In this document: positions 8,511 to 61,297 of the stretch, in pieces
How the letters are laid out: every line of letters begins with the position of its first letter
Numbering within the stretch: position 1 is the stretch's first letter
DNA from: Opitutia bacterium
Lineage (GTDB): Bacteria; Verrucomicrobiota; Verrucomicrobiia; Opitutales; JABJCN01
Assembly (NCBI GenBank): GCA_038125285.1
Contig: JAYPDO010000001.1
Coordinates: 5,605 to 69,604, forward strand
DNA: 64,000 bases
Direction: 5' to 3'
Position numbers and translations under genes: made by a program
The notes under the pieces: generated by a model
What the model saw: only the letters and a program-made list of their open reading frames with translations
What the model was told of the DNA's origin: nothing
The model's database searches: none

Positions 8511-11500
8511 ATGGGACGCGACTGGAACAGTCTGCTGAACCCACCCAAATTCGACGTACCCATATTGAAAATAGAAACCTATCCAATTCGACGTACAATC
8601 CAGCCCGGCCTCCTCGCCTTATTGGGTGTGCTCCTGTCTGCGTGCGGTGACGAGGGGAAAAGCAAACCGGAAGTAGTCGCGGTAGAATCTTCCAATGTGG
8701 CCAAAGTCCCCACTCGCCCGGCGGAAAGTCCGTTTGTCCATCCTGGCCTGTTGTCCACAAAGGCGGATTTGGAGAGGATGGCGGCGAAGGTCGCCGCTGG
8801 CGAGGAACCCTGGATAGGGAGCTGGGACATCCTGGTTCGGAACACGGACGGCTTCCTCCGCCACAACCCGGAAGCCACGCCGACCGTCTACGTGGATTCG
8901 GACAAAGGGAGCAACTTCATCCGCTTGGCCAGGGATGCGGCGCGGGGCTACCAACTCGCGTTGCGGTACCATGGCTCGGGGGACAAGAGGTTCGCGGACA
9001 AGGCGGTGCAAATCTACAATGCCTGGGCAACCACCCACGGCCCGGCAGGGAAAGACCCGGAACCGGACGGCAATTCGGAGGGCTGGTACGGCAATACGAA
9101 TGCGGGGCTCCGGCAAGGCTTGTATGGATACCAATTTGCCTGCGGGGCGGAGTTGTTGCGGGAGTACGAAGGTTGGGACAGGAAGGATTTCAAACGGTTC
9201 CAAGCCTACATGCTGGACGAGTTTTACACGGGCAACAAATGGTTCCTTGAAGCCCGTTACGGGACTGTTCCCACCCACTACTGGGCCAACTGGGTTCATG
9301 CCAACCAGGCCTCCATGATGGCCATCGGGGTGCTTTGTGACGACCGGGCAATTTTTTCCAAAGCCGTGGATTATTTCCACAACGGCCCGGGGAACGAGAA
9401 CATCCGGCAGGCCGTCCAGTTCGTCCATCCGGATGGCCTCGGGCAATGGCAGGAAAGCGGCCGGGACCAGGGGCATTCTTTGATGGGGCCGCAGCTTCTC
9501 GGGACGGTTTGTGAAATTGCATGGAACCAAGGCGTCGACCTCTACGGGGCACAGGACAACCGTTTCTTCGCCGGGGTGGAATACATCTCGAAATACAATG
9601 TCGGGCATGAGGTCCCGTGGACGACCTACGTCTACGTCCACAAACATCCGGGCAAAGAGTTGTTCTGGGTACAAACCAATGTGAATGGCGGAGGCCGGGG
9701 CATCCTCCGGCCAGGTTGGGACCTCGTCTACAACCACTACGTCAACCGCAAGGGGATGGCCGCACCCTGGACAGAAAAGTATGCCCGGCGGAACAGGCCG
9801 GAAGGCGGAGGGTTCAACTTTGGCGGCACCAGCGGTGGGTTTGACGGGCTTGGCTTCACGACCTTGACCCACAGCCTCGAACCGATTGCCAAAGGCGCGC
9901 CTCCAGGTACGCCGAGGGTGGTGGTACAAGGCAGGCAAATAGCCCTTTCCTGGACAGGTTCGGCACATGCGGAAAGCTATGATGTGAAGCGCGCAACCCA
10001 AAGCGGAGGCCCTTACACAACTATTGCCACAACAGGCCGGATGCTCCTTTCCTACATCGACCCGGGCCTGACCGCTGGCACGACCTACTCCTACGTGGTT
10101 TCTGCCAACAATCCGGATGGCACGGTGGCAGACAGCAAGGAAGCCAAGGCCACTGCGGACGGGAAGCTCCACGGGAAGGTTATCGGCACAGAGGGTTCCT
10201 ACAAAAATTCCGGGGCAAGCATCACCACCCTCTTCGACGGCTCTTTCGATAACTATTTCGACCCGCCGACAACCAACGCTTGGGCAGGCATCGACATCGG
10301 GGAAGGCGTCACCGCCAAGGTTACGAAGGTCAAATACGCCCCCCGCAAATACTTCGGCGGACGGATGGTCGGCGGCACCTTCCAAGGCTCCAATACTGCG
10401 GACTTCAGCGAAGGCGTGAGCGACCTGTGCACCATTGCCAACGGGCCACCGGACGGAGTCCTCACCTCCCAGGTTGTCCAGTCAAACACCCCCTTCCGCT
10501 ATCTTCGTTACATCCAAACCACCGGAGAACGCTGGTGCAACGTGGCGGAAATCGAGTTCTATGGTGAAGTCCATGGCCAAGTCGCCCCACAAGCCCCCGC
10601 AGCTCCGGTCGCAGCCCCTGATGAGTCGAAGGTGGATTTGTCCTGGAAATCCGTCCCCAGGGCAACTCGCTACAACATCAAACGCGCAACTTCCCCAGAC
10701 GGGCCGTTCACCCTCATTGCCAATACGGCCGGAACCTCTTTCCGTGACGACGGACTCGCCCCCGGCTCCTACCACTACGTAGTCAGCTCCCTGAACGATG
10801 CAGGCGAATCCCAGGACTCCAAGGTCGCGGGCGGGCAACTCATTGGGAACATAAAGCTGGACGGGGCATCCTTTACCGCAAACGCCCACAGCACCTACTG
10901 GGGGGCGGACACCGAAGGCCCGGCCAAAGCCTTCGACGGGGACAGGAACACCCAGTGGTACAGCGGGGATGGCCATGCCTCTGGATGGCTGCAAGTCCAC
11001 CTCGGTGCTGGCAAGGACGCGACCGTTGCCCGCTACTCCCTCACTAGCTCCAAAGATGTTCCCGGACGCGATCCGAAGGACTGGGAACTGCATGGTTCGA
11101 CTGACGGGAAAAACTGGACGCCCCTGGATAACCGCAAGGACGAAACTTTCGGACGGCGCGGCGAAACCAAAACTTATCCTGTCAGCCGACCCGGTTCATA
11201 CCGCCACTACGGGCTCAACATCCGCTCCAACCAAAGCGGCAACCCCAAGGATGGCATCCAGTTGGCGGAACTCGAGTTCCTGGGGCACAGCAGCACACAA
11301 CCGGTGACCCCCATGAAGACAAAGGAAGTCATTCGGACACAACGGGAAATCACCAGGGCGGAACTGGAGGACAAAGTTGCCGGATACTGGCTCGGCCAAA
11401 TCATCGGCAACTACTTCGGCTTCCCCTTCGAGCTGCTTTACATCGAAGAACCCGTCCCGGTCACGGTCGACAAGTTCTTCACCCAGCGCAACAACGGGAA

Positions 11501-50795: not shown

Positions 50796-52913
50796 ATGAA
50801 GAAAATCCTCCTCACCACCACCTCTTTCCAGGACACCCCGGGGGAACACCACCGAGTCCTAGAAAGCGCAGGTTTTGAAATTGTCCGCGAACGCGGCCCC
50901 CTCCCCGAATCCCGCATGCTGGAACTCGCCGGGGACTTCGACGCCTTCCTCTGTGGCGATGATGCCATCACCAAAGCAGTCATCGACAAATCCCTCCCCA
51001 AGCTCCAAGTCATCTCCAAATACGGCATCGGGCTGGATAAGATCGACGTCGCCTACGCCACCTCCAAACAAATCCCCATCACCTTCTGCCCCGGCGTCAA
51101 CCACACTACCGTAGCCGAGCATACCTTCGCCCTCCTCCTCGCCCTCGTCCGCAACCTGCTCGACTCCGCTAACGCCACCCGCCAGGGCAACTGGAAACGC
51201 ATCACCGGCAACGAAATCCTCGGCAAGACCATTTCCATCGTCGGCCTCGGCCGCATCGGCAAGGAAGTCGCCATCCGCGCCAACGCCTTTGGCCTCGCCG
51301 TCCTAGGCTACGATATTTACTGGGACGCCGGCTTCGCTGCAAAGCACAACGTCCGCCGCATTGAAAGCCTACCGGAAATCCTCGCTGCCGGGGACATCGT
51401 CTCCCTCCACACTAACCTTTCCCACGATACGAGGGAAATGATCAACGCCCGCTCCCTTGCTCAAATGAAGGACGGCGTCCTCATCCTCAACTGTGCCCGG
51501 GGCGAACTCGTCGATACCACCGCAATGGTCGAAGCGCTCAACTCCGGCAAAGTCGGCGGCTACGGGACGGATGTCCTCGACCAGGAGCCCCCGCCTGCCA
51601 ATCACCCGCTCCTCCATACCCCCAACACCATCGTCACCCCGCACATTGGCTCCCGGACTTACGAATCCGTCGTCAGACAAGCCACCATGGCGGCCAACAA
51701 CCTCATCCTCGCCCTCGACGGCAAACAACCCCTCGCCCAAGCCAACGACGCCCCGCTCCCCGGCGGGCTCGCATCCAAATCCGCACCCTCCGCACCCTCA
51801 ATTTCCACAGCGCCCAAGATGAACCAAGAACGCTACTACATCGTCCCCACGGAGACCCACAACTCCCTCGTCCACGCCGCCTACATCCACCGGGGCTACA
51901 CCCAGTCGGAAGCCGAATACGCAACCCGCTTCGCAGCCCTCGCGGCCGAACACGGCATCCGCACCCACAACGCCCTCAAGGCTCTCCACCTCGACCACCT
52001 TTTCGGCTCCGCAAAAGGCGGCTGCGTTCCTAACGTTGATATCAAAAAGCAACCCTCCCGCTTCGCCGCCAGCCAAGCATGGGACGCCAACAAAAAGCTC
52101 GGCCAGGCCGTAGCCTACGAAGCCATGGACACCTGCATGGAGCTGGCCGACAAATATGGCATCGCCCAAGTCGCGGTCGACAACACCTTCCACTACCTCT
52201 GGGGCGGCGGCTACGCACTCTACGCCTCCCAAAAAGGCTACATCGCCTACACCAACTGCACCTCGACTCTTGCGGAAGTCGTCCCATTCGGCGGCAAGAC
52301 CCCGACCCTCGGCACCAACCCACACACCTGGGCATTCCCGACCAAGTCCGCCATCGGCCACGATATCCTCATCGACTGGGCCACCTCCGTAGTCGCCATG
52401 GGCCGCGTCCAGCAGTTCAAAAGGGAAAACAAGGAACTTCCCCCCAATGCCGCAGTCGATGCCGACGGCAACCCTACCACCGACCCCAACAAGGTCAACG
52501 CCCTCCTACCCTTCGGCGCCCACAAAGGTTACGGTCTGAGCCTCATCAACGAGATCATGGGCGGCTACATCGGCGGTTCCCTCCCCACCATCCGTGGCCA
52601 CCACAAAAACGACGACGAGAAGCAAACTACCGCCTTCTATTTCCAAGTCATCCACCCCGACGCCCTCCCCGGTGGCACCTTTGCAAAAGGCCGTAACCAA
52701 GCTGAAAACGTCAAGGCCGTCATCCAGGACATCCTTGGCCCTGGCAATGAAAAGTGCCTCCTCCCCGGCCAGATCGAAGCTGAGTTCGCCACCCGCACCG
52801 CCAAGACCAATGGCCTCCTCTTCACAGAAAAAGAAATCTGGGCCTTCAACGAAATCGCCGAAGAATGCGGCCAGCCCAAGTGGAACCTCGTCTCCTTCCA
52901 AACCGAATCCTAA
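50796..52913 (+). CDS. Fusion protein: D-isomer-specific 2-hydroxyacid dehydrogenase (N) + Ldh_2-family (malate/L-lactate/ureidoglycolate/2,3-diketogulonate-type) dehydrogenase (C)
   Basis: N-domain: IVGLGRIGKEVA, NCARGELVD, DVLDQEP, VTPHIGS. A P/S/A-rich linker lies at about 51740-51815. C-domain from MNQERYY (51819): HYLWGGGY, LGTNPHTWAFP, IDWATSVVAMGRV, DADGNPTTDP, LLPFGAHKGYGLSL. There is no stop between the domains. The track ORF start at 50382 is antisense to mscS and was rejected. Confidence 0.85.
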   Translation: MKKILLTTTSFQDTPGEHHRVLESAGFEIVRERGPLPESRMLELAGDFDAFLCGDDAITKAVIDKSLPKLQVISKYGIGLDKIDVAYATSKQIPITFCPGVNHTTVAEHTFALLLALVRNLLDSANATRQGNWKRITGNEILGKTISIVGLGRIGKEVAIRANAFGLAVLGYDIYWDAGFAAKHNVRRIESLPEILAAGDIVSLHTNLSHDTREMINARSLAQMKDGVLILNCARGELVDTTAMVEALNSGKVGGYGTDVLDQEPPPANHPLLHTPNTIVTPHIGSRTYESVVRQATMAANNLILALDGKQPLAQANDAPLPGGLASKSAPSAPSISTAPKMNQERYYIVPTETHNSLVHAAYIHRGYTQSEAEYATRFAALAAEHGIRTHNALKALHLDHLFGSAKGGCVPNVDIKKQPSRFAASQAWDANKKLGQAVAYEAMDTCMELADKYGIAQVAVDNTFHYLWGGGYALYASQKGYIAYTNCTSTLAEVVPFGGKTPTLGTNPHTWAFPTKSAIGHDILIDWATSVVAMGRVQQFKRENKELPPNAAVDADGNPTTDPNKVNALLPFGAHKGYGLSLINEIMGGYIGGSLPTIRGHHKNDDEKQTTAFYFQVIHPDALPGGTFAKGRNQAENVKAVIQDILGPGNEKCLLPGQIEAEFATRTAKTNGLLFTEKEIWAFNEIAEECGQPKWNLVSFQTES

Positions 52914-53046: not shown

Positions 53047-54288
53047 ATGATCTTAGAAAAGTACACCCTGGGTACTGGCGACCGCTTTGCCCACCAAGCC
53101 AAAGCCCAGCTCCAAGCCTGTGTAAACCTCTTCCAAAACGAAGGCATCGAAGTGGTCCCGGTCTGGAACAAATCCAACAGGGAGCACTCCTTCATCGGCT
53201 CCGAGCCACAGTCCGTTTACGACGCAGCCAAGCAAGCCGTAGCCGACCTCGGTTGGGACAAGGGCTGGCACGTCGATGCCGACCACATCAACCTCTCCAC
53301 GGTCGACAAATACATCGCCTCCTCCGACTTCTTCACCATCGACGTCGCCGACTCCATCGGCAAAGCGCCGGAAACGGGGGCAATCGACGCTTTCTTGGAC
53401 CTCCATCCCGGGCTGGTAGGCGAAATCGTCATTGACGGGATTTCCCAACCATTCACGACCACCCGCGACTCCGTGGCTGCAGTTGCCGGGAAGTACCTCG
53501 CCGCAGTCAAGGAAGCCGGGGAAATTTACCGCCACATTAAAACCCAGAAAGCAGACTTCATCGCCGAAGTCTCCATGGACGAGACGGACAACCCGCAGAC
53601 CCCTCCGGAATTGCTCATTATCCTCGCCGCCCTTTCAGACGAAGGCATCCCTCTCCAGACCATCGCCCCGAAGTTTACAGGCCGCTTCAACAAAGGGGTC
53701 GATTACGTGGGGAACCTCACCCAGTTCGAGAGGGAATTCAACGACGACCTCGCCGTCATCTCCTACGCCATCAGAGCCTACAAACTCCCCGAAGACCTAA
53801 AGCTCAGCGTACACTCCGGAAGCGACAAATTCTCCATCTACCCCATTATCGGCAAAGCCCTCCGCCGCACAGGTGCGGGCATCCACCTCAAAACCGCTGG
53901 CACCACCTGGCTGGAAGAACTCATCGGACTCGCCGAAGCCGGGGGCGAAGGCCTCGTCCTGGCCAAGGACATTTACAAAGCCGCCCACGCACAAAGCGAA
54001 GCCCTCTGCGGCCCCTACGCCACCGTCATTGACATCGACCCAGGCCAACTCCCCTCCCCGGCCACTGTCGATGCCTGGAGTAGCGACAATTACATGAATG
54101 CACTTCGCCACATCCCCGGCCATGCGGAATACAACCAACACTTCCGCCAACTCCTCCACGTCGCCTTCAAACTCGCCGCCAAAGAAGGCGACCGCTACGC
54201 CAACCTCCTCAAGAAACACGAGGCCGTAGTCGCCAAAAACGTAACCGAGAATCTCTACGAACGCCACCTCAAAAGAATCTTCGCCTGA
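53047..54288 (+). CDS. uxaE: Tagaturonate/fructuronate epimerase family protein (UxaE-like)
   Basis: N-terminus LGTGDRFAHQAKAQLQA...VPVWNKSNREH and DADHINLSTVDKYI...FFTIDVAD match my recollection of the UxaE family. Context with uxaC and kdgK supports the call. Confidence 0.7.
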   Translation: MILEKYTLGTGDRFAHQAKAQLQACVNLFQNEGIEVVPVWNKSNREHSFIGSEPQSVYDAAKQAVADLGWDKGWHVDADHINLSTVDKYIASSDFFTIDVADSIGKAPETGAIDAFLDLHPGLVGEIVIDGISQPFTTTRDSVAAVAGKYLAAVKEAGEIYRHIKTQKADFIAEVSMDETDNPQTPPELLIILAALSDEGIPLQTIAPKFTGRFNKGVDYVGNLTQFEREFNDDLAVISYAIRAYKLPEDLKLSVHSGSDKFSIYPIIGKALRRTGAGIHLKTAGTTWLEELIGLAEAGGEGLVLAKDIYKAAHAQSEALCGPYATVIDIDPGQLPSPATVDAWSSDNYMNALRHIPGHAEYNQHFRQLLHVAFKLAAKEGDRYANLLKKHEAVVAKNVTENLYERHLKRIFA

Positions 54289-54386: not shown

Positions 54387-55484
54387 ATGAGCCTCGAAAT
54401 CCGCCCTACCGACCACTGCCAATACGACTGCCTCTCCCTCGGGGAAGTCATGCTACGCCTCGACCCTGGTGAAGGACGGGTACGCACTGCCCGACAGTTC
54501 CAAGCATGGGAAGGGGGCGGCGAGTACAACGTCACCCGTGGCCTGCGCCGTTGCTTTGGACTCCGCACTGCAGTAGTCACCGCTTTCGCCGACAATGATG
54601 TCGGCCAACTCATCGAAGACTTCATCCTCCAGGGCGGTGTCGATACCCGTTTCATCCAGTGGAAAAAGTATGACGGCATCGGCCGTGAAGTCCGCAACGG
54701 GCTCAACTTTACTGAGCACGGCTTCGGCATCCGTGGCGCAGTCGGCGTGCCCGACCGGGGCAACACCGCAGCCTCCCAAATGAAGCCCGGCGACATCGAC
54801 TGGGATCATATTTTTGGTGAACTCGGAGTCCGTTGGTTCCACACAGGCGGCATCTTCGCCGCCCTCTCAGAAACCACCGCTGCACTGACCGAGGAAGCCG
54901 TTGCCTGCGCAAGGAAACACGGAACCATTGTCTCCTATGACCTCAACTACCGCCCCTCCCTCTGGAAGTCCATCGGCGGCCATGCGAAAGCCCAGCAAGT
55001 CAACCGCAACATCGCCAAGAATGTGGACGTCATGATTGGCAATGAAGAAGACTTCACCGCCTGCCTCGGCTTCGAAGTCGAAGGCTTGGACGAGAACATC
55101 TCCGCCATCGAAGTCGCCAACTTCAAAAACATGATCAACAAGGCGGTGAAAGAGTTCCCAAACTTCAAAGCCACCGCCACCACCCTCCGCACCGTCAAGA
55201 CCGCCACCATCAACGACTGGGGCGCCATCTGCTGGTCCGGAGGCGAGTTCCACGAAGCCACTTACCGTGAAAACCTCGAAATCATGGACCGCGTAGGCGG
55301 CGGCGACAGCTTCGCCTCCGGCCTTATTTACGGCTTCCTTAAATTCAACGACCCTGCCAAAGCCGTCGAATATGGTGCTGCCCACGGAGCCCTCGCCATG
55401 ACCACCCCAGGCGATACCTCCATGGCCACCTGTGCCGAAGTCGAAAAACTCATCGGCGGAGGTGGAGCCCGCGTGGTAAGGTAA
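54387..55484 (+). CDS. kdgK: PfkB-family sugar kinase, 2-dehydro-3-deoxygluconokinase-like
   Basis: LSLGEVMLRLDP, GGGEYNV and a C-terminal DRVGGGDSFASGLIYG motif. Confidence 0.8.
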   Translation: MSLEIRPTDHCQYDCLSLGEVMLRLDPGEGRVRTARQFQAWEGGGEYNVTRGLRRCFGLRTAVVTAFADNDVGQLIEDFILQGGVDTRFIQWKKYDGIGREVRNGLNFTEHGFGIRGAVGVPDRGNTAASQMKPGDIDWDHIFGELGVRWFHTGGIFAALSETTAALTEEAVACARKHGTIVSYDLNYRPSLWKSIGGHAKAQQVNRNIAKNVDVMIGNEEDFTACLGFEVEGLDENISAIEVANFKNMINKAVKEFPNFKATATTLRTVKTATINDWGAICWSGGEFHEATYRENLEIMDRVGGGDSFASGLIYGFLKFNDPAKAVEYGAAHGALAMTTPGDTSMATCAEVEKLIGGGGARVVR

Positions 55485-55509: not shown

Positions 55510-56388
55510 ATGCATAGCACAACAAATCCCGCTCTCCCCGCCGGGTCACTAACCCGATTGCCACCAATTGGAAGGCCAATCTTGGCGGCATTGCTCTGTT
55601 TGGCCATCTTTTCACAATCTGCCAATGCAGACAAGGATGCGCCAGAATTGAAAGTACTCTTCCAAGAGTACGAAGAGGCACAGGCCAAATTTTCCAAGAC
55701 CAAGGACTATGGGCAACCCTACAGGGATTCCATTGAAACTGCGCAGAAACTGCTATCCGCTTTGATAAATTATTGGATGTCCCAACCGGAGGATTCCGAA
55801 GGGGAGTCTTTTGCTGCTAAAGAAATCAAAGCCGTTTTCAAAGTGCTGGCGGGCAGCCCGCTAACTGAAAAGCACAACCTGGGAAAATCCTTTATTGCCC
55901 GGGCGGTCTGGCCTTTGCTCGCCAATAGCGAAATCAAGCCCGGCAAGGCCAAGTTTCTGGAAGGGCTGGTCAAGCCGCAAATGGGAGTCCGCATGAATGA
56001 CCAGGCAGCGAAACGGGGAAAACCGACGGAACCCCTGGGCTGGGATGTGCAAGCGGCCTATGTCTTGGCCTTGGTTCGTAGCGACAACGAAAAGCAAGCC
56101 AGTGAGGAAATCTCCATCCTCCACAAGAAGGTTACCATCAACCATGGCCGGAACCCCGATGGGAAGCTTGATTTTGGGGCGGATGCGGGAAAAGGCCGCT
56201 ACCGGGACTACAAGGACTTCCTCCAACTTTGCGAAGCTCTGCACGCCTTGCAGGCTTCCATTTCCAAGGATTTTGAAACTGCTCATGAACACATCGCTAT
56301 TGCCCAGGGAATCAAGAAGGAGCTTTCCCCTGAGGCGGACACGCTGGCCAAAGAAGCCATCAAGAGGGCAAAACTAGAAAAAGAATGA
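55510..56388 (+). CDS. Secreted all-alpha hypothetical protein
   Basis: Signal peptide ILAALLCLAIFSQSANA. Lys/Glu-rich and helical-looking. No family recognised. Confidence 0.6.
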   Translation: MHSTTNPALPAGSLTRLPPIGRPILAALLCLAIFSQSANADKDAPELKVLFQEYEEAQAKFSKTKDYGQPYRDSIETAQKLLSALINYWMSQPEDSEGESFAAKEIKAVFKVLAGSPLTEKHNLGKSFIARAVWPLLANSEIKPGKAKFLEGLVKPQMGVRMNDQAAKRGKPTEPLGWDVQAAYVLALVRSDNEKQASEEISILHKKVTINHGRNPDGKLDFGADAGKGRYRDYKDFLQLCEALHALQASISKDFETAHEHIAIAQGIKKELSPEADTLAKEAIKRAKLEKE

Positions 56389-56468: not shown

Positions 56469-57248
56469 ATGGACTACCTCGACAACCTCTTCTCCCTTGA
56501 AGGCAAGACCGCCGTCGTCACTGGCGGTACTGGCGAACTCTGCGGCGCCATGGCCGAAGGCCTGGCAGGTGCAGGTGCGACAGTCATCCTCGTAGGCCGG
56601 AACGAAAAGAAGGCGGAAGCTCGGATGAAGGTCATCCGCGATTCTGGCGGCATAGTCCATTTCGAGTCCTGCGACGTTGGCAACAAGGAGTCCCTCCAGG
56701 GTCTGCTCGACCGTTGTGTGGCCAAAACCGATGGAATCGACATACTGGTCAACGGCGCCGGGGTCAACTCTCCCACCCCATTCTTGGAAATCCCTGAAGA
56801 CGAACTCGACCACATCATGAATGTCAACTTCAAGGCCGTCTTCCTCGCCTGCCAGATTTTTGGGAAGTATTTCCTGGGGCGAGGTAAGCCCGCCAGCATC
56901 ATCAACCTTGGATCCATCTCCGGCCTAAACCCCCTTTCCCGCGTATTCTCCTACAGTGCTTCCAAGGGTGCCCTCCACAACCTGACCAAAAACCTCGCCC
57001 GCGAGTGGGCGACCCAAAAGATCCGCGTCAACACCCTCGTCCCCGGCTTCTTCCCGGCCGAGCAAAATCGCAAGGTCCTTACCATGGACCGGGTAGAGTC
57101 CATCATGGGGCACACCCCGATGAAGCGCTTCGGCGAGTCCCATGAACTGATCGGCGCGACCCTCCTCCTCGCCTCCGACAAAGCCGGCGCATTCATCACC
57201 GGCCACGAAATGATAGTGGACGGCGGTTACTCGGCCATGACGATATAA
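56469..57248 (+). CDS. SDR-family oxidoreductase (KduD / gluconate-5-dehydrogenase-like)
   Basis: [31 protein letters not shown] and YSASKGAL. Located in the hexuronate cluster. Confidence 0.85.
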
Positions 57249-57249
57249 A

Positions 57250-58668
57250 ATGAGCTTCATCCACGACGATTTCCTCCTCCAGTCCAAGGCGGCGAAGCAG
57301 CTGTACCACAACCACGCGGCGGGCCAACCGATCATCGACTTCCATAGCCACCTCCCGCCGGAGGATGTCGCGAATGACAAGAAGTTCGAAAACCTTTACG
57401 AAATCTGGCTTGCCGGGGACCATTACAAGTGGCGCGCCATGCGGGCGGCCGGAATGCCCGAGGAGCTTTGCACGGGGGACGCCGACCCTTTCGACAAATA
57501 CATGGCCTGGGCGAAGACCGTCCCCATGACGATCCGCAACCCTCTTTACCATTGGACCCACCTGGAGCTAAAACGTTATTTTGGGATAGACGAACTCCTT
57601 TCCGGAGCCACGGCCAAGCGCATTTGGGACCAAGCCAACGAACAACTGGCCAGCCCGGAGTTCTCCACTCGCAGCATCCTGAAGCGCTTCAAAGTCGAAG
57701 TCGCCTGCACAACTGACGACCCGGCCGAGAACCTACCCCACCACGAGAAGATCTCAGGCGAGGGAGTGGCGACCAAAATCTACCCGACCTACCGGCCGGA
57801 CAAAGCCTTCGCCACCCAGGATTTGGAAGCCTTCAATATCTGGTTGGACAAACTTGCGGCCACTGCCCACAAACCTATCAACTGCCTCAAGGATCTGCTG
57901 GACGCCCTTAAAAAGCGCCATGATGACTTCCATGCCCTCGGCGGTCGCCTTTCCGACCACGGCCTCCCCCACTGCTTCCCGCCGAAAGGCCGGCCCAAGA
58001 GCGATTTGGACGCCCTTGAAGCCATCTTTGCCAAGGCCCGGCTCGGGGAAAAGCTCAACGGGCAACAACAGGAAGACTTCGCCGCCTACATCCTTCTCTA
58101 TTCCGCTGTCCTGGATGCTGAAAAGGGATGGACCAAGCAGCTCCACCTCGGCCCGATCCGCAATAACCGCTCCACCTTATTCAACCAAGCCGGCCCGGAT
58201 GCCGGGGGCGACTCCATGAACGACGAACGCCAAGTCGAACCGCTTGCCCGCTTCCTCGACGCACTGGACTCCCAAGGCCAGCTCCCAAAGACCATCGTCT
58301 ACAACATGAACCCCAAGGACAGCATGGCACTGGCCACCATGATCGGGAATTTCCAAGGCCCGCCCACCGCGGGAAAGCTCCAGTATGGTTCCGGATGGTG
58401 GTACCTGGATACCAAACAAGGCATGCAAGACCAGCTCAACATCCTCTCGTCCACCGGGTTACTCTCCACATTCGTCGGCATGCTCACCGACAGCCGTTCC
58501 TTCCTCTCCTTCACCCGCCACGAGTATTTCCGCCGCATCCTCTGCAACCTCATCGGGCAAGATATTGAGAACGGGGAAATCCCCGATGACCAGGAACTGA
58601 CCGGTAACCTTATCGAGGGCATCTGCTATAAAAATGCGCGGAATTACTTCGGATTCGCAATCAACTAA
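57250..58668 (+). CDS. uxaC: Glucuronate isomerase
   Basis: DDFLLQSKAAKQLYHNHAAGQPIIDFHSHL, GDHYKWRAMRAAG and NPLYHWTHLELKRYFGI. Confidence 0.95.
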   Translation: MSFIHDDFLLQSKAAKQLYHNHAAGQPIIDFHSHLPPEDVANDKKFENLYEIWLAGDHYKWRAMRAAGMPEELCTGDADPFDKYMAWAKTVPMTIRNPLYHWTHLELKRYFGIDELLSGATAKRIWDQANEQLASPEFSTRSILKRFKVEVACTTDDPAENLPHHEKISGEGVATKIYPTYRPDKAFATQDLEAFNIWLDKLAATAHKPINCLKDLLDALKKRHDDFHALGGRLSDHGLPHCFPPKGRPKSDLDALEAIFAKARLGEKLNGQQQEDFAAYILLYSAVLDAEKGWTKQLHLGPIRNNRSTLFNQAGPDAGGDSMNDERQVEPLARFLDALDSQGQLPKTIVYNMNPKDSMALATMIGNFQGPPTAGKLQYGSGWWYLDTKQGMQDQLNILSSTGLLSTFVGMLTDSRSFLSFTRHEYFRRILCNLIGQDIENGEIPDDQELTGNLIEGICYKNARNYFGFAIN

Positions 58669-58691: not shown

Positions 58692-60245
58692 ATGGAATAC
58701 CTTATCGGCATCGACGTCGGCACTTCCTCAACCAAAGCCCTCCTGATCGACCCATCCGGCAAAATCTGCAAAGTTTCTGTTCCGGAATACGATTTCCATA
58801 CCCCGAAGCCCCTGTGGGCAGAATCGGATCCCGCAGACTGGTGGGAGGCCGCCCAAAAGGCGATCAAGGCCTTGGTCGAAGGCATAAACCCAAGCGACAT
58901 CGCGGGGATTGGCCTGACCGGGCAGATGCACGGCTTGGTCTGCTTGGACAATGCTGGCGACGTACTCCGCCCCTGCATCATGTGGAATGACCAACGGACT
59001 GCCCAGCAGTGCCTGGAGATGACCACCCGCTTAGGCGGCGAGGAAGATGTGATCGCGCTGACCGGCAACCCCATCCTACCCGGATTCACCGCCCCGAAGT
59101 TACGCTGGATCCAGGAGAACGAACCAGAAGTCTATTCCAAGATCGCCAAGATCCTGCTGCCCAAGGACTACATCCGCTTCAAGCTCAGCGGGGAATTTTT
59201 CACCGATGTTTCGGACGCATCCGGCACCAGCCTGCTCGACGTCCAGCAGCGCCATTGGTCGCGCTACATCATGAGCGAGTTCGGCTGGCCGGAAGCCTGG
59301 CTGCCCACTGTCACCGAATCCCCGGAAGCCTCGACCAAACTTTCCTCCGAAGCAGCAAGGTTGCTCGGCCTCCCCGCAGGCATCCCGATCATTGCCGGAG
59401 GCGGGGACCAAGCCGCCCAGGCCGTCGGTTGCGGAATTGTCACTGAAGGCACGCTGTCCACCACCCTCGGGACCTCCGGCGTCGTCTTTGCCCACTCCGA
59501 TGAGTACCGCGTAGAAACCAAAGGCCGCCTCCATGCCTTCTGCCACGCCGTCCCGGGCAAGTGGCACCTCATGGGGGTCATGCTTTCTGCAGCGGGATCC
59601 TTCCAGTGGTACCGCAACCAACTTTGCCAACACGAGATCGACCAAGAAAAGGCTGGTGGCGAAGACGCCTATGACCAACTCACCGCTGCAGCAGCTAAGG
59701 TACCAGTCGGCTCGGAAGGGCTCGTATTCCTCCCCTACCTAAGTGGCGAGCGCACCCCCTATCCCGACCCCAATGCACGGGGCAGCTTCATCGGCCTGAG
59801 CCTACGCCATACCAAAGCCCACATGACCCGCTCCGTCCTGGAGGGAGTGTCCTACGGCCTCAACGATTCCCTGGAGCTAATGCGCAGCATGGGCATCCAC
59901 CCGGAAAACATGGTTCTCTCCGGGGGCGGGGCAAAATCCCCCCTTTGGCGGCAAATGTTGGCCGACGTGTTCAATACGCGTTGCTCCCTGGTCAACTCCA
60001 CAGAGGGCGCGGCATACGGCGCGGCCTTGTTGGCAGGAGTCGGCTCGAAAGTTTTCAACACCGTGGAGCAAGCCTGTGAAAAGACCATCCAGACCACCGA
60101 CTCAGTGGAACCAGGCGACGATGCCCCCTTCTACGCCGACTTCTTTCCCCGGTACCGGAACCTCTACCCCGCCCTGCGCCTCGAGTTCGAGCAAATGGCT
60201 GATACCCTGCAAGCCCACTCGAAAGGCAGCTTCTTCACAGTTTGA
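58692..60245 (+). CDS. xylB: FGGY-family carbohydrate kinase, xylulokinase-like
   Basis: IGIDVGTSSTKALL, LWAESDPADWW, GLTGQMHGLV, RPCIMWNDQR, GGGDQAAQAVG and SGGGAKSPLWRQMLADV. Confidence 0.9.
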   Translation: MEYLIGIDVGTSSTKALLIDPSGKICKVSVPEYDFHTPKPLWAESDPADWWEAAQKAIKALVEGINPSDIAGIGLTGQMHGLVCLDNAGDVLRPCIMWNDQRTAQQCLEMTTRLGGEEDVIALTGNPILPGFTAPKLRWIQENEPEVYSKIAKILLPKDYIRFKLSGEFFTDVSDASGTSLLDVQQRHWSRYIMSEFGWPEAWLPTVTESPEASTKLSSEAARLLGLPAGIPIIAGGGDQAAQAVGCGIVTEGTLSTTLGTSGVVFAHSDEYRVETKGRLHAFCHAVPGKWHLMGVMLSAAGSFQWYRNQLCQHEIDQEKAGGEDAYDQLTAAAAKVPVGSEGLVFLPYLSGERTPYPDPNARGSFIGLSLRHTKAHMTRSVLEGVSYGLNDSLELMRSMGIHPENMVLSGGGAKSPLWRQMLADVFNTRCSLVNSTEGAAYGAALLAGVGSKVFNTVEQACEKTIQTTDSVEPGDDAPFYADFFPRYRNLYPALRLEFEQMADTLQAHSKGSFFTV

Positions 60246-60280
60246 CCCAAGCAAAAGCCCAATCTACCCTTCCCGATCCA

Positions 60281-61297
60281 ATGAAAACCCAATTTGACCC
60301 GTCACTCACTACCCATGATTCCGAGCACAGGACATGGATTCTGGGTCTGGCCTTCGTGGGTATCGTGATGGTTATGGGACTATCCGTAGTCCCGTTTGCA
60401 TCCCAAAAAAACAACCAGCAGGCCGCCAAACCGGAGCAAGCCCTGACCGCACAGGATGCCGGCCCGCCTGAGCATGGACAACCCTCCTTGCTTCCAACTG
60501 AAGAAACCAAGGAGGAAGTCCAAGCCCCGAAAAGCCTGCCCCCCGCCCAACCCGTTGCCGAGGTAGAAGACCACGTGCCGGGATTAGTCCAAGGCCCGGC
60601 ATTGTCAGAGATATTCCCAATCCCAGGAACAACTGGACAGGAACCAGACCTCACCATTGACGCCTTGGTGAAAGAAGCGGATGAAGAGCCTTCTAAGGAT
60701 CCGGAGATAGTGCCTTTGCCGTTCCCCCTCCCTTCCGAGGATAAACCAACGACAGAAGCCAATAGGCCCACCATCCTGGAAAAGCCTGAAATTGCAACCT
60801 TGCCGACGGATGCAGAAACAGAAAAGGAGGACAATGCAACGCCTCCACAACCGTCCTTACCTGCCCCAGAACTTCCAGAGCCCCCTGCCCTGACCTTATT
60901 GCCCTTGGTGCCGACGGTTCCCTTCACCCCGGTTCCGGTTGCCAAAATCCAGGCGAATGAAGAGCCCCTTCCCCCGGTTGAAGAAACACAGCCCGAAGTT
61001 GCTTCACCGGCACCTGCCCCACCTCCTTCCCCGGTTGCCCCTGATGTAAGGGAAAAGCCAGAACAACCGGCTCCCCCCAGGGTTACAATCGAACTCCCCA
61101 AACCCAAGCCCGACAGCTACTTCAACAACTCGTTGGTGCAGAAATACCGCATAAAAAACCCGACCGACGAAATTTCCAACCGCTCCCTCACAAAACAAAT
61201 GGGCGACTACTACAAAAGGACTGGGACATTCTTGAAATACGCTGACAAGTTCCCGGATTGGGCGCAGCAATACAACCAGATCCAAAATGAGGAGTAG
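60281..61297 (+). CDS. Membrane-anchored Pro/Glu-rich hypothetical protein
   Basis: One transmembrane helix (WILGLAFVGIVMVMGLSVVPF), a long P/E/A-rich low-complexity region, and an ordered-looking C-terminal region of about 70 aa (KPDSYFNNSLVQKYRIKNPTDEI...). The ATG at 60281 is preferred over the TTG at 60242. Confidence 0.6.
   Translation: MKTQFDPSLTTHDSEHRTWILGLAFVGIVMVMGLSVVPFASQKNNQQAAKPEQALTAQDAGPPEHGQPSLLPTEETKEEVQAPKSLPPAQPVAEVEDHVPGLVQGPALSEIFPIPGTTGQEPDLTIDALVKEADEEPSKDPEIVPLPFPLPSEDKPTTEANRPTILEKPEIATLPTDAETEKEDNATPPQPSLPAPELPEPPALTLLPLVPTVPFTPVPVAKIQANEEPLPPVEETQPEVASPAPAPPPSPVAPDVREKPEQPAPPRVTIELPKPKPDSYFNNSLVQKYRIKNPTDEISNRSLTKQMGDYYKRTGTFLKYADKFPDWAQQYNQIQNEE

Follow-up and report, generated by a model that had tools for sequence, protein, structure and literature searches.

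Which reaction a single protein built from two unrelated dehydrogenase families might carry out, and why such a protein stands among genes for hexuronate use, is the question raised by a locus of an Opitutia bacterium. The window analyzed here is the whole stretch of 64,000 nucleotides (64 kb) taken from contig JAYPDO010000001.1, and within it an uninterrupted frame runs on the + strand from an ATG at 50796 to a TAA at 52911-52913. The encoded protein has 705 residues, with a D-2-hydroxyacid dehydrogenase (2-HADH) at its N-terminus and a dehydrogenase of the Ldh_2 family at its C-terminus. The reading put forward here, quite possible if a little short of probable, is that of a two-domain NAD-dependent enzyme that would invert, by two successive reactions, the C2 center of a sugar acid derived from hexuronate, with mannonate and gluconate as the leading pair of substrates. 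The gene is composed of the following parts.

50796..52913, + strand: fused open reading frame (ORF) with 2-HADH domain, linker, and Ldh_2 domain (frame and Pfam)
50796..51749, + strand: D-isomer-specific 2-hydroxyacid dehydrogenase domain, residues 1-318 (Pfam; alignment to PDB 1wwk and 2cuk)
51750..51818, + strand: P/S/A-rich linker, residues 319-341 (low predicted local distance difference test score, pLDDT; stops and spacer here in split relatives)
51819..52910, + strand: Ldh_2-family domain, residues 342-705, from the ancestral start Met (Pfam; alignment to YiaK, 1s20)

A longer ORF starting at TTG 50382 is a mechanical extension, dismissed because the N-termini of homologues align with MKKILLTTTS at 50796.

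The 2-HADH half (PF00389 and PF02826) carries the expected features of its family. Pfam places 2-Hacid_dh_C at residues 111-285 (193.3 bits against a cut-off of 25.1) and 2-Hacid_dh at residues 20-315 (73.3 bits against 24.6). The dinucleotide motif GLGRIG occupies residues 150-155, and R235 (within NCARGELVD), E264 (DQEP), and H283 (TPHIGS) match the Arg/Glu/His of 1wwk and 2cuk and are invariant across 24 aligned orthologues. After the GLGRIG strand, D173 occupies the place of the Asp found behind the second nucleotide-fold strand in the NAD-type enzymes 1wwk and 2cuk. An Asp at this position is a sign of NAD rather than NADP preference. The N-terminal motif of this half, LLTTTS(Y/F)QDTPG, is also invariant.

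The Ldh_2 half (PF02615) scores 218.5 bits against a cut-off of 38.8 over residues 352-677, which corresponds to profile positions 3-325 of 333. In the alignment to YiaK, H391 corresponds to His44, K395 to Arg48, and H466 to His116; from the structure papers on YiaK and AllD, we take His44 to be catalytic and His116 to be a second active-site histidine. Other motif positions are GTNPH at 506-510, D527, and H576, the GTNP and D-x-ATS motifs are present, and the motif positions of this half do not vary among 30 aligned homologues. In place of the carboxylate-binding Arg48 of YiaK stands Lys395 (nucleotides 51978-51980), which is invariant in all fused and eukaryote-sourced sequences aligned and keeps the positive charge. 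Around the catalytic histidine, the half has THN versus the usual SHG motif. Lys395 and THN may mark a change of substrate, perhaps to one that is phosphorylated or polyhydroxylated.

A preliminary description of the locus had named a complete 2-HADH with the four motifs given above, a stop-free passage through a P/S/A-rich linker into a complete Ldh_2 domain, an internal Met at 51819 as the beginning of that domain, and a position at the head of a hexuronate-type cluster. Every named motif was located, and the 705-residue frame together with Pfam confirms the passage. The Met is residue 342, at the place where the separate Ldh_2 genes of relatives have their start codon, and the fusion is indeed the first gene of a co-directional run. 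The profile scan that had been proposed for 2-Hacid_dh_C and Ldh_2 gives scores far above the gathering values for both. Loss of catalytic residues from either domain had also been considered; both sets are intact, with the change from Arg to Lys at the YiaK Arg48 position as the single departure.

Judged by profile scores, both halves belong unambiguously to their Pfam families, yet neither falls in a characterized subfamily, because all NCBIfam equivalogs lie far below their cut-offs and the solved structures are distant. The 2-HADH half reaches 247 against 454 for phosphoglycerate dehydrogenase (SerA, TIGR01327), 206 against 455 for glyoxylate reductase, and 158 against 492 for GhrB (NF011938), and an ACT/ASB regulatory domain is absent from it. 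The Ldh_2 half reaches 145 against 500 for sulfolactate dehydrogenase, 130 against 356 for ureidoglycolate dehydrogenase, 125 against 316 for 3-dehydro-L-gulonate 2-dehydrogenase (YiaK), and 118 against 336 for malate/lactate dehydrogenase. The closest solved structures for the two halves are distant relatives (E 6e-34 to 1.8e-54), the best for the Ldh_2 half reaching only E 6e-34.

What the two halves might do together is suggested by stereochemistry. Characterized Ldh_2 enzymes use L-configured 2-hydroxyacids, namely L-sulfolactate, (S)-ureidoglycolate, L-malate/L-lactate, and C2 of 3-dehydro-L-gulonate, and 2-HADH enzymes are D-specific. As derived from Fischer projections, the hexuronate-derived aldonates D-mannonate, L-gulonate, D-altronate, and L-galactonate are all L at C2, and the corresponding epimers (D-gluconate, L-idonate, D-allonate, and L-talonate) are D at this carbon. 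The stoichiometric, often covalent pairing of an L-specific with a D-specific NAD dehydrogenase is what would be expected of a redox epimerase that works through a 2-keto acid. In such an enzyme, the Ldh_2 domain would oxidize the C2 hydroxyl of an aldonate to a 2-keto acid, and the D-specific 2-HADH domain would reduce this to the C2 epimer, or both steps would run in reverse. The NADH from one step would be consumed by the other, so that the cofactor would be recycled internally. The likeliest substrates would be D-mannonate, 2-dehydro-D-gluconate, and D-gluconate, interconverted in this order, with D-mannonate supplied from glucuronate or galacturonate by UxaC, UxaE, and a short-chain dehydrogenase/reductase (SDR). 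Gluconate is proposed as one end of the reaction because a sister Ldh_2 clade is fused to a gluconokinase, and mannonate as the other because of the UxaC, the UxaE, and the mannonate-oxidoreductase-like SDR nearby. From these patterns we infer sequential coupling, substrate, direction, cofactor recycling, and any channelling. The enzyme could feed UxaC, UxaE, and KdgK, as first proposed, or could carry their product mannonate onward; either direction is possible.

The reasoning presupposes that the fusion is genuine. A missed stop or indel in the linker would leave two ordinary adjacent genes, and most relatives do have a stop codon at the linker position. However, a 100% identical protein (P0001) is present in a public NCBI assembly, and members of its cluster at ≥90% identity, also of 705 residues, come from JGI and ENA assemblies. 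At the nearest genome locus, L011 of an uncultured Opitutales metagenome-assembled genome (MAG), the orthologue is 84% identical and fused likewise, and the downstream gene order is the same. The window and L011 linkers are separated by an in-frame 3-codon indel and mixed substitutions. Compared codon by codon, the window and L011 differ by 106 synonymous and 54 non-synonymous codons in the 2-HADH half, 109 and 45 in the Ldh_2 half, and 6 and 9 in the linker. Synonymous differences thus exceed non-synonymous ones in both domains, which indicates purifying selection on both halves. About 43 same-order fused proteins of 54-84% identity were also retrieved (the HAD-LDH tally of the first protein search). 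With a fused relative, selection on both halves, and a frame kept through considerable divergence, an assembly artefact is barely conceivable and can be regarded as excluded for practical purposes. The 23-residue linker itself (residues 319-341) is predicted to be disordered. An AlphaFold2 model built from 24 sequences gives pLDDT <50 at residues 325-343, a mean pLDDT of 73, and a predicted template modeling score (pTM) of 0.47, with low confidence in the Ldh_2 active-site loops, and is therefore unfit for judging domain-domain geometry or channelling.

Among relatives, the two halves are usually separate. A pattern scan took one genome per GTDB species, 550 relatives in all, and the loci analyzed are the best 80 of the 550. 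At least 79 species-level genomes, all from Verrucomicrobiota or Planctomycetota, carry the halves either fused or as adjacent co-directional genes, and so does one MAG labelled Fibrobacteria; among the carriers in culture are Oleiharenicola lentus, Geminisphaera colitermitum TAV2, and Lentimonas. In the 79 informative genomes of these two phyla, the frame is open throughout only in L011, L016, L032, and L038, and about 75 other loci carry at least one stop. At the split loci, one or more stops follow a conserved PLAQ(A/V)N tail, then come a spacer of about 10-150 nucleotides and an Ldh_2 gene that starts MSE(T/K)FY(I/V)VP. For nearly all 80 loci, tblastn aligned the whole query in one frame with an in-frame TAA, TGA, or TAG inside the spacer. 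Read-through or recoding of the stop codon was rejected as a selection artefact: the stop types are mixed, multiple stops are common, and the adjacent genes share a frame because loci were ranked by their best single segment, which brings same-frame pairs to the top. The best matches among 50%-identity representatives are single-domain proteins, P0149 (370 residues, 64%) and P0150 (325 residues, 61%), beyond which identity falls to about 43-46%; this search gave single-domain representatives only and is no basis for counting fusion clusters.

From these alignments, the normal state is two adjacent genes from two tight, distinct subfamilies, with fusion as the minority state. The linker is the translated former C-terminal tail plus intergenic spacer, and Met342 the former start codon. 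A lost stop codon had been offered as the trivial alternative to a functional fusion. As the evolutionary origin of the fusion this stands, since the genes are split in about 75 of 79 genomes and split adjacent genes dominate the orthologue search (about 75 split, 4 fused); as a sequencing artefact it falls, since the fusion is fixed and selected. The fusion is thus a modest event, the loss of a stop codon in a gene pair, and is useful as a Rosetta stone that flags the pair. The novelty lies not in the fusion, or in the families and the type of chemistry, which are known, but in the uncharacterized pair, with its combination, context, and probable role.

Fusion also appears to recur. In a tree of the Ldh_2 domain, same-order fusions occupy at least four places, each beside split relatives: the window with L011, L016 with P0006, P0003, and one large planctomycete clade. 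The tree was made by neighbor joining without support values, so that only its gross pattern is to be trusted, and this pattern suggests that fusion arose several times. The domains also occur in reverse order (Ldh_2 followed by 2-HADH) in a clade of about 11 clusters, each domain of which is about 55% identical to that of the window. The fusions other than the window type are located as follows.

P0045-P0054, including P0047 (EukProt); locus L092, 805-2952: reverse-order fusion, from eukaryote catalogues (EukProt, MERC), on transcript-like contigs of about 2.3 kb
L010, 8129-9685; L091, 10001-11584; P0070, P0081, P0135-P0148: gluconokinase-Ldh_2 fusions

A 2-HADH fragment related to the reverse-order clade comes from a marine eukaryote catalogue. 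L092, one longer contig of this form, has sparse genes and no visible bacterial-type neighbors or operon partners. The reverse-order sequences are probably eukaryotic, and a form without visible operon partners favors a self-contained two-step reaction. The gluconokinase fusions belong to a sister clade of the Ldh_2 domain (64% identity) in Verrucomicrobiota, whose members are joined to, or lie next to, a GntK/IdnK-type gluconokinase (150 bits, with the cut-off at 114). Its neighbors are an SDR, or a GFO/MocA and xylose-isomerase-like pair, with no 2-HADH nearby. One 90%-identity cluster holds both fused (527 residues) and separate (162 and 363 residues) GntK/Ldh_2 calls, and this junction may be polymorphic or variably called. 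Of the two-step redox epimerization of a sugar acid first suggested for the locus, the notion of coupled stereo-complementary steps fits the conserved pair, the apparently recurrent fusions in both orders, and the gluconokinase-Ldh_2 fusion. The emphasis on the fused protein needs correction, because the unusual object is a widespread gene pair of which the fusion is a minority form.

The surroundings of the gene bear on the substrate. In the window, the co-directional run consists of the fusion, a UxaE-like protein, a PfkB kinase, an inserted ORF, the SDR, UxaC, and XylB, and the upstream neighbor of the fusion is an MscS-like channel on the opposite strand.

53047..54288, + strand: UxaE-family protein (tagaturonate/fructuronate epimerase-like), 413 residues, lacking the first ~78 profile positions (PF16257, 189.5 bits)
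54387..55484, + strand: PfkB-family kinase resembling 2-keto-3-deoxygluconate (KDG) kinase, 365 residues (best PDB match 2afb, Thermotoga maritima KDG kinase, E 8e-52)
55510-56388, + strand: inserted ORF between kinase and SDR, 292 residues (no Pfam or NCBIfam match; signal-peptide-like N-terminus)
56469..57248, + strand: SDR oxidoreductase resembling D-mannonate oxidoreductase or gluconate 5-dehydrogenase, 259 residues (NCBIfam)
57250..58668, + strand: UxaC, glucuronate/galacturonate isomerase, 472 residues (PF02614, 630 bits)
58692-60245: xylulokinase XylB, FGGY family (XylB model, 574 bits against 380)

The kinase also scores 277 bits to the kinase half of a fusion model that joins a kinase to 2-keto-3-deoxy-6-phosphogluconate (KDPG) aldolase. 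The SDR falls just below two cut-offs, with 238.6 bits against 281 for D-mannonate oxidoreductase (PRK08277) and 220.5 against 279 for gluconate 5-dehydrogenase (PRK08213). Searched by tblastn with the Escherichia coli proteins (E≤1e-5), the 64-kb window contains no UxuA or UxaA homologue; Eda is likewise absent from the window, which shows UxaC, the SDR reductase, and the KDG-kinase-like PfkB. The 292-residue ORF was considered as a novel dehydratase and dropped. It is absent from L011, the closest relative, where the gap between kinase and SDR is 77 bp, and its composition is atypical, with a GC content of 0.52 overall and 0.59 at third codon positions (GC3) against about 0.59 and 0.75 in its neighbors; it looks like a lineage-specific insertion into the operon. 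The FGGY kinase is ruled out as a gluconokinase, as it scores 308 against 649 with that model and 574 against 380 with the XylB model. Beyond it, a proline/glutamate-rich ORF of 351 residues (60242-61297, + strand; GC3 0.57) has no family match and resembles L011 only at its ends; it may encode a membrane-anchored or secreted protein of poor conservation, or may not be a gene.

Neighbors were also compared across 84 loci with the pair or a fusion. The counts below are of clustered, homology-supported ORFs, longest-ORF calling being unsuitable at these loci because antisense shadow ORFs in GC-rich DNA displace real genes.

PfkB kinase of 365 residues: 51 of 84 loci, 46 of them within 4 kb, on the same strand at a median distance of 67 bp downstream; the most conserved partner
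SDR of 260 residues: 39 of 84, 38 of them within 4 kb
UxaC: 21 of 84 (tblastn with E. coli UxaC)
GlcD-like oxidase dependent on flavin adenine dinucleotide (FAD): 14 of 84, in Opitutaceae, divergently upstream
GFO/MocA oxidoreductase: 11 of 84
UxaE-like protein: 10-12 of 84
LacI-type regulator: 6 of 84
ExuT-like transporter of the major facilitator superfamily: 5 of 84
KDPG aldolase (Eda): 3 of 84, immediately behind the kinase in two (L069, L075) and, in L089, one gene further on, behind the SDR

Dehydratases are scarce in the same set. With E. coli probes in tblastn, UxaA is found in none of the 84 loci and UxuA in none of 83; the remaining locus, L060, has a UxuA homologue (8541-9716, 53% identity to E. 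coli) immediately upstream of the pair on the same strand, and is alone in this among about 87 loci in all. An IlvD/Edd-type dehydratase occurs in one locus only (L077), and GntK in none of the 84. The conserved unit consists of isomerase, reductase, kinase, and the dehydrogenase pair, and lacks the dehydratase found next to the reductase in classical hexuronate clusters.

Several other neighbors were observed. The GlcD-like oxidase (FAD_binding_4 and FAD-oxidase_C, about 490 residues; for example L023, 8249-9727, - strand) is a third oxidoreductase of 2-hydroxyacid type at the locus. Adjoining UxaC in L035 (14145-16013), L052, and L089 is a protein of 620 residues with a weak, partial UxaE-family match (29.6 bits), which may be a distant epimerase or an aldolase-like relative. 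A GFO/IDH/MocA oxidoreductase and a xylose-isomerase-like triosephosphate isomerase (TIM) barrel protein (AP_endonuc_2) lie upstream of the pair in L014, L015, L017, L020, L081, and L085, joined in L014, L015, L017, and L085 by a 3-keto-disaccharide hydrolase (DUF1080). The same couple lies upstream of the GntK-Ldh_2 gene in L091. The AP_endonuc_2 family also includes KguE, from the 2-ketogluconate operon of Pseudomonas. An aldo-keto reductase stands immediately upstream of the fusion in L002 and likewise in several other loci.

A number of these observations weigh against inversion of C2 between mannonate and gluconate. The L-specificity of this Ldh_2 subfamily is assumed by analogy with other members, and the Arg48 of YiaK is replaced by an invariant Lys. 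The 2-HADH half is nearest to SerA and glyoxylate-reductase types, not to the GhrB-type 2-ketoaldonate reductases. The kinase that is the closest partner resembles KDG kinase (2afb, with Eda accompanying it in three loci) and not a gluconate kinase, so that gluconate made from mannonate would have no obvious way to it without a gluconate dehydratase or Edd encoded elsewhere. UxuA directly upstream of the pair in L060 implies that the pair cannot be read simply as replacing mannonate dehydratase; by analogy with Thermotoga, the UxuA route and the route through the pair may coexist. Standalone, orthologue-level copies of each half (60-66% identity) also occur in unrelated contexts, and no linkage to sugar acids was found around the standalone homologues P0079, P0111, P0076, and P0097. 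In literature that excluded much subscription material, no paper on a 2-HADH/Ldh_2 pair or fusion was found, and nothing relevant on UxaE together with Ldh or on yjmC.

Such points leave room for other explanations. The halves might not be coupled in sequence at all and might serve separate or parallel roles, each taking one isomer of a 2-hydroxyacid to a common 2-keto acid, or one acting as hydroxypyruvate/glyoxylate reductase and the other as malate/lactate dehydrogenase, with the fusion a near-neutral stop loss between co-expressed neighbors. The rarity of the fusion (4 of 79 genomes), the single-domain proteins that represent the 50%-identity clusters, the standalone occurrence of each half, and, as a hint of general 2-hydroxyacid metabolism, the divergent GlcD-like oxidase at 14 loci of Opitutaceae are what this would predict. 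Its weakness is that adjacency is kept across two phyla, that same-order fusions have apparently arisen independently several times alongside a reverse-order one, that the pair is tightly linked to the KDG-kinase-like gene, the SDR, and UxaC, and that the halves are tight, distinct subfamilies with identity falling from about 62% to about 45% outside, which together make a lack of coupling unlikely. The same C2 inversion might also act on another substrate, either from L-gulonate through 2-keto-L-gulonate to L-idonate, or between D-fructuronate and 5-keto-D-gluconate through 2,5-diketogluconate. The fructuronate version would link the fructuronate/mannonate/KDG route to L-iduronate or L-idonate. 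Within the Ldh_2 family, YiaK works on C2 of a derivative of L-gulonate. The fungal glucuronate pathway runs from L-gulonate through 2-keto-L-gulonate to L-idonate, and its L-gulonate-oxidizing enzyme is unassigned (PMC4870679). The aldo-keto reductase directly upstream in L002 and several other loci is a possible uronate reductase, the SDR scores almost equally as gluconate 5-dehydrogenase and as mannonate oxidoreductase, and isomerization of L-iduronate would give 5-keto-D-gluconate, which stereochemical derivation makes the C2 epimer of fructuronate. However, a second dehydrogenase for the path from idonate through 5-ketogluconate to gluconate is not conserved in the cluster, where GntK is missing as well, and the pair is common in Opitutaceae of soil, freshwater, and termite gut, where iduronate is not an obvious substrate; another substrate is quite improbable.

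A phosphorylated route is the remaining alternative, in which the PfkB kinase would act first on mannonate or 2-ketogluconate, or in which both domains would form a 6-phosphomannonate 2-epimerase. In its first version, Ldh_2 would convert mannonate to 2-ketogluconate, PfkB would convert this to 2-keto-6-phosphogluconate, and 2-HADH would yield 6-phosphogluconate. The most conserved unit of 2-HADH, Ldh_2, and PfkB, without a dehydratase, agrees with it, as does the nearness of the 2-HADH half to phosphoglycerate dehydrogenases, enzymes that accept a D-2-hydroxyacid in phosphorylated form. Together with UxaC and the SDR, it would give a complete five-enzyme path from glucuronate to 6-phosphogluconate with every step filled. 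KguK is a PfkB-family kinase and KguD a 2-HADH-family reductase. In Pseudomonas, these two take 2-ketogluconate to 6-phosphogluconate (PMC11678583), and Lactobacillus suebicus has a kinase for mannonate together with a 6-phosphomannonate 2-epimerase without an assigned gene (PMC6978723). The kinase itself speaks against such a route, being most like T. maritima KDG kinase and the kinase halves fused to KDPG aldolase, with Eda nearby in L069, L075, and L089. A fusion that joins steps one and three, as a scheme like that of KguK and KguD would have it, is less natural, above all for the eukaryote-sourced form, and the gluconokinase joined to an Ldh_2 orthologue points to free gluconate, although this kinase might just as well act on mannonate. 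On balance, the phosphorylated route is distinctly unlikely.

A more specific form of the proposed C2 inversion can be stated, and is itself doubtful: the pair and its fusions might be a hitherto unrecognized NAD-dependent (6-phospho)mannonate/gluconate 2-epimerase, a non-orthologous replacement of the nickel-dependent epimerase GntE, a candidate type for the Lactobacillus activity, and a dehydratase-independent hexuronate branch in some marine eukaryotes as well as in Verrucomicrobiota and Planctomycetota. Both phyla rank among the main degraders of polysaccharides rich in uronic acids, and a dehydratase beside the reductase and kinase is conspicuously missing from their hexuronate clusters. 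If the pair is a cofactor-recycling C2 epimerase, two tight, widespread subfamilies now labelled "phosphoglycerate dehydrogenase" and "Ldh family oxidoreductase" would gain a function, mannonate/gluconate epimerization would have a second, nickel-independent solution, and a candidate enzyme type would be available for the 6-phosphomannonate 2-epimerase of L. suebicus. The L. suebicus route is of biotechnological interest, as it takes galacturonate to ribulose-5-phosphate in a redox-neutral manner, and the natural fusions are ready-made single-polypeptide constructs.

To our knowledge, no known system combines the 2-HADH and Ldh_2 families. Several known systems resemble the proposed reaction in part. 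GntE of T. maritima and Corynebacterium glutamicum, a member of the LarA superfamily with a nickel-pincer nucleotide cofactor, interconverts D-mannonate and D-gluconate by 2-epimerization; the T. maritima enzyme was first proposed from its hexuronate gene context, and the reaction was argued to let D-mannonate enter the pentose phosphate pathway (PMC7583248). The net reaction proposed for the pair would be the same, an inversion of C2 by a hydride shuttle, hidden or explicit, through a 2-keto acid. The proteins lack homology: Pfam gives the fused protein 2-Hacid_dh and Ldh_2 domains plus two weak NAD-binding matches below cut-off, and no LarA domain with nickel-pincer residues was found in it by that scan. 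In contrast to the single site and tethered nickel cofactor of GntE, the fused protein would use dissociable NAD(H) and two sites of opposite stereospecificity.

In L. suebicus, mannonate reaches 6-phosphogluconate by a kinase and the 6-phosphomannonate 2-epimerase, whose gene is unassigned (PMC6978723). Both there and in the route proposed here, UxaC, UxaE, and a fructuronate reductase act in the preceding steps, and a kinase and C2 epimerization would replace mannonate dehydratase. The L. suebicus epimerase, however, acts on the 6-phosphate and its kinase candidates are gluconokinase homologues, whereas the kinase of the window is KDG-kinase-like. Another parallel is the racemization of sulfolactate by the (S)-sulfolactate dehydrogenase SlcC and the (R)-sulfolactate dehydrogenase ComC, an Ldh_2 member, as the work of Denger and Cook (2010) is related in PMC5695019. 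There, too, two NAD(P)-dependent dehydrogenases of opposite specificity invert a 2-hydroxyacid through the 2-oxo acid, and one partner is of the Ldh_2 family. SlcC and ComC are encoded as two distinct proteins, their substrate is a C3 sulfonate, and the other partner is of a different family, while here 2-HADH and Ldh_2 are adjacent or fused in a sugar-acid context. With the known 2-HADH and Ldh_2 enzymes of hexonates, the proposed enzyme would share C2 redox chemistry of defined stereochemistry, and operons that combine a kinase with a 2-HADH for 2-keto-hexonates exist. The domains of the window differ from those enzymes in lying below the YiaK (125 against 316) and GhrB (158 against 492) cut-offs, and the 2-HADH half is nearer to SerA-like enzymes.

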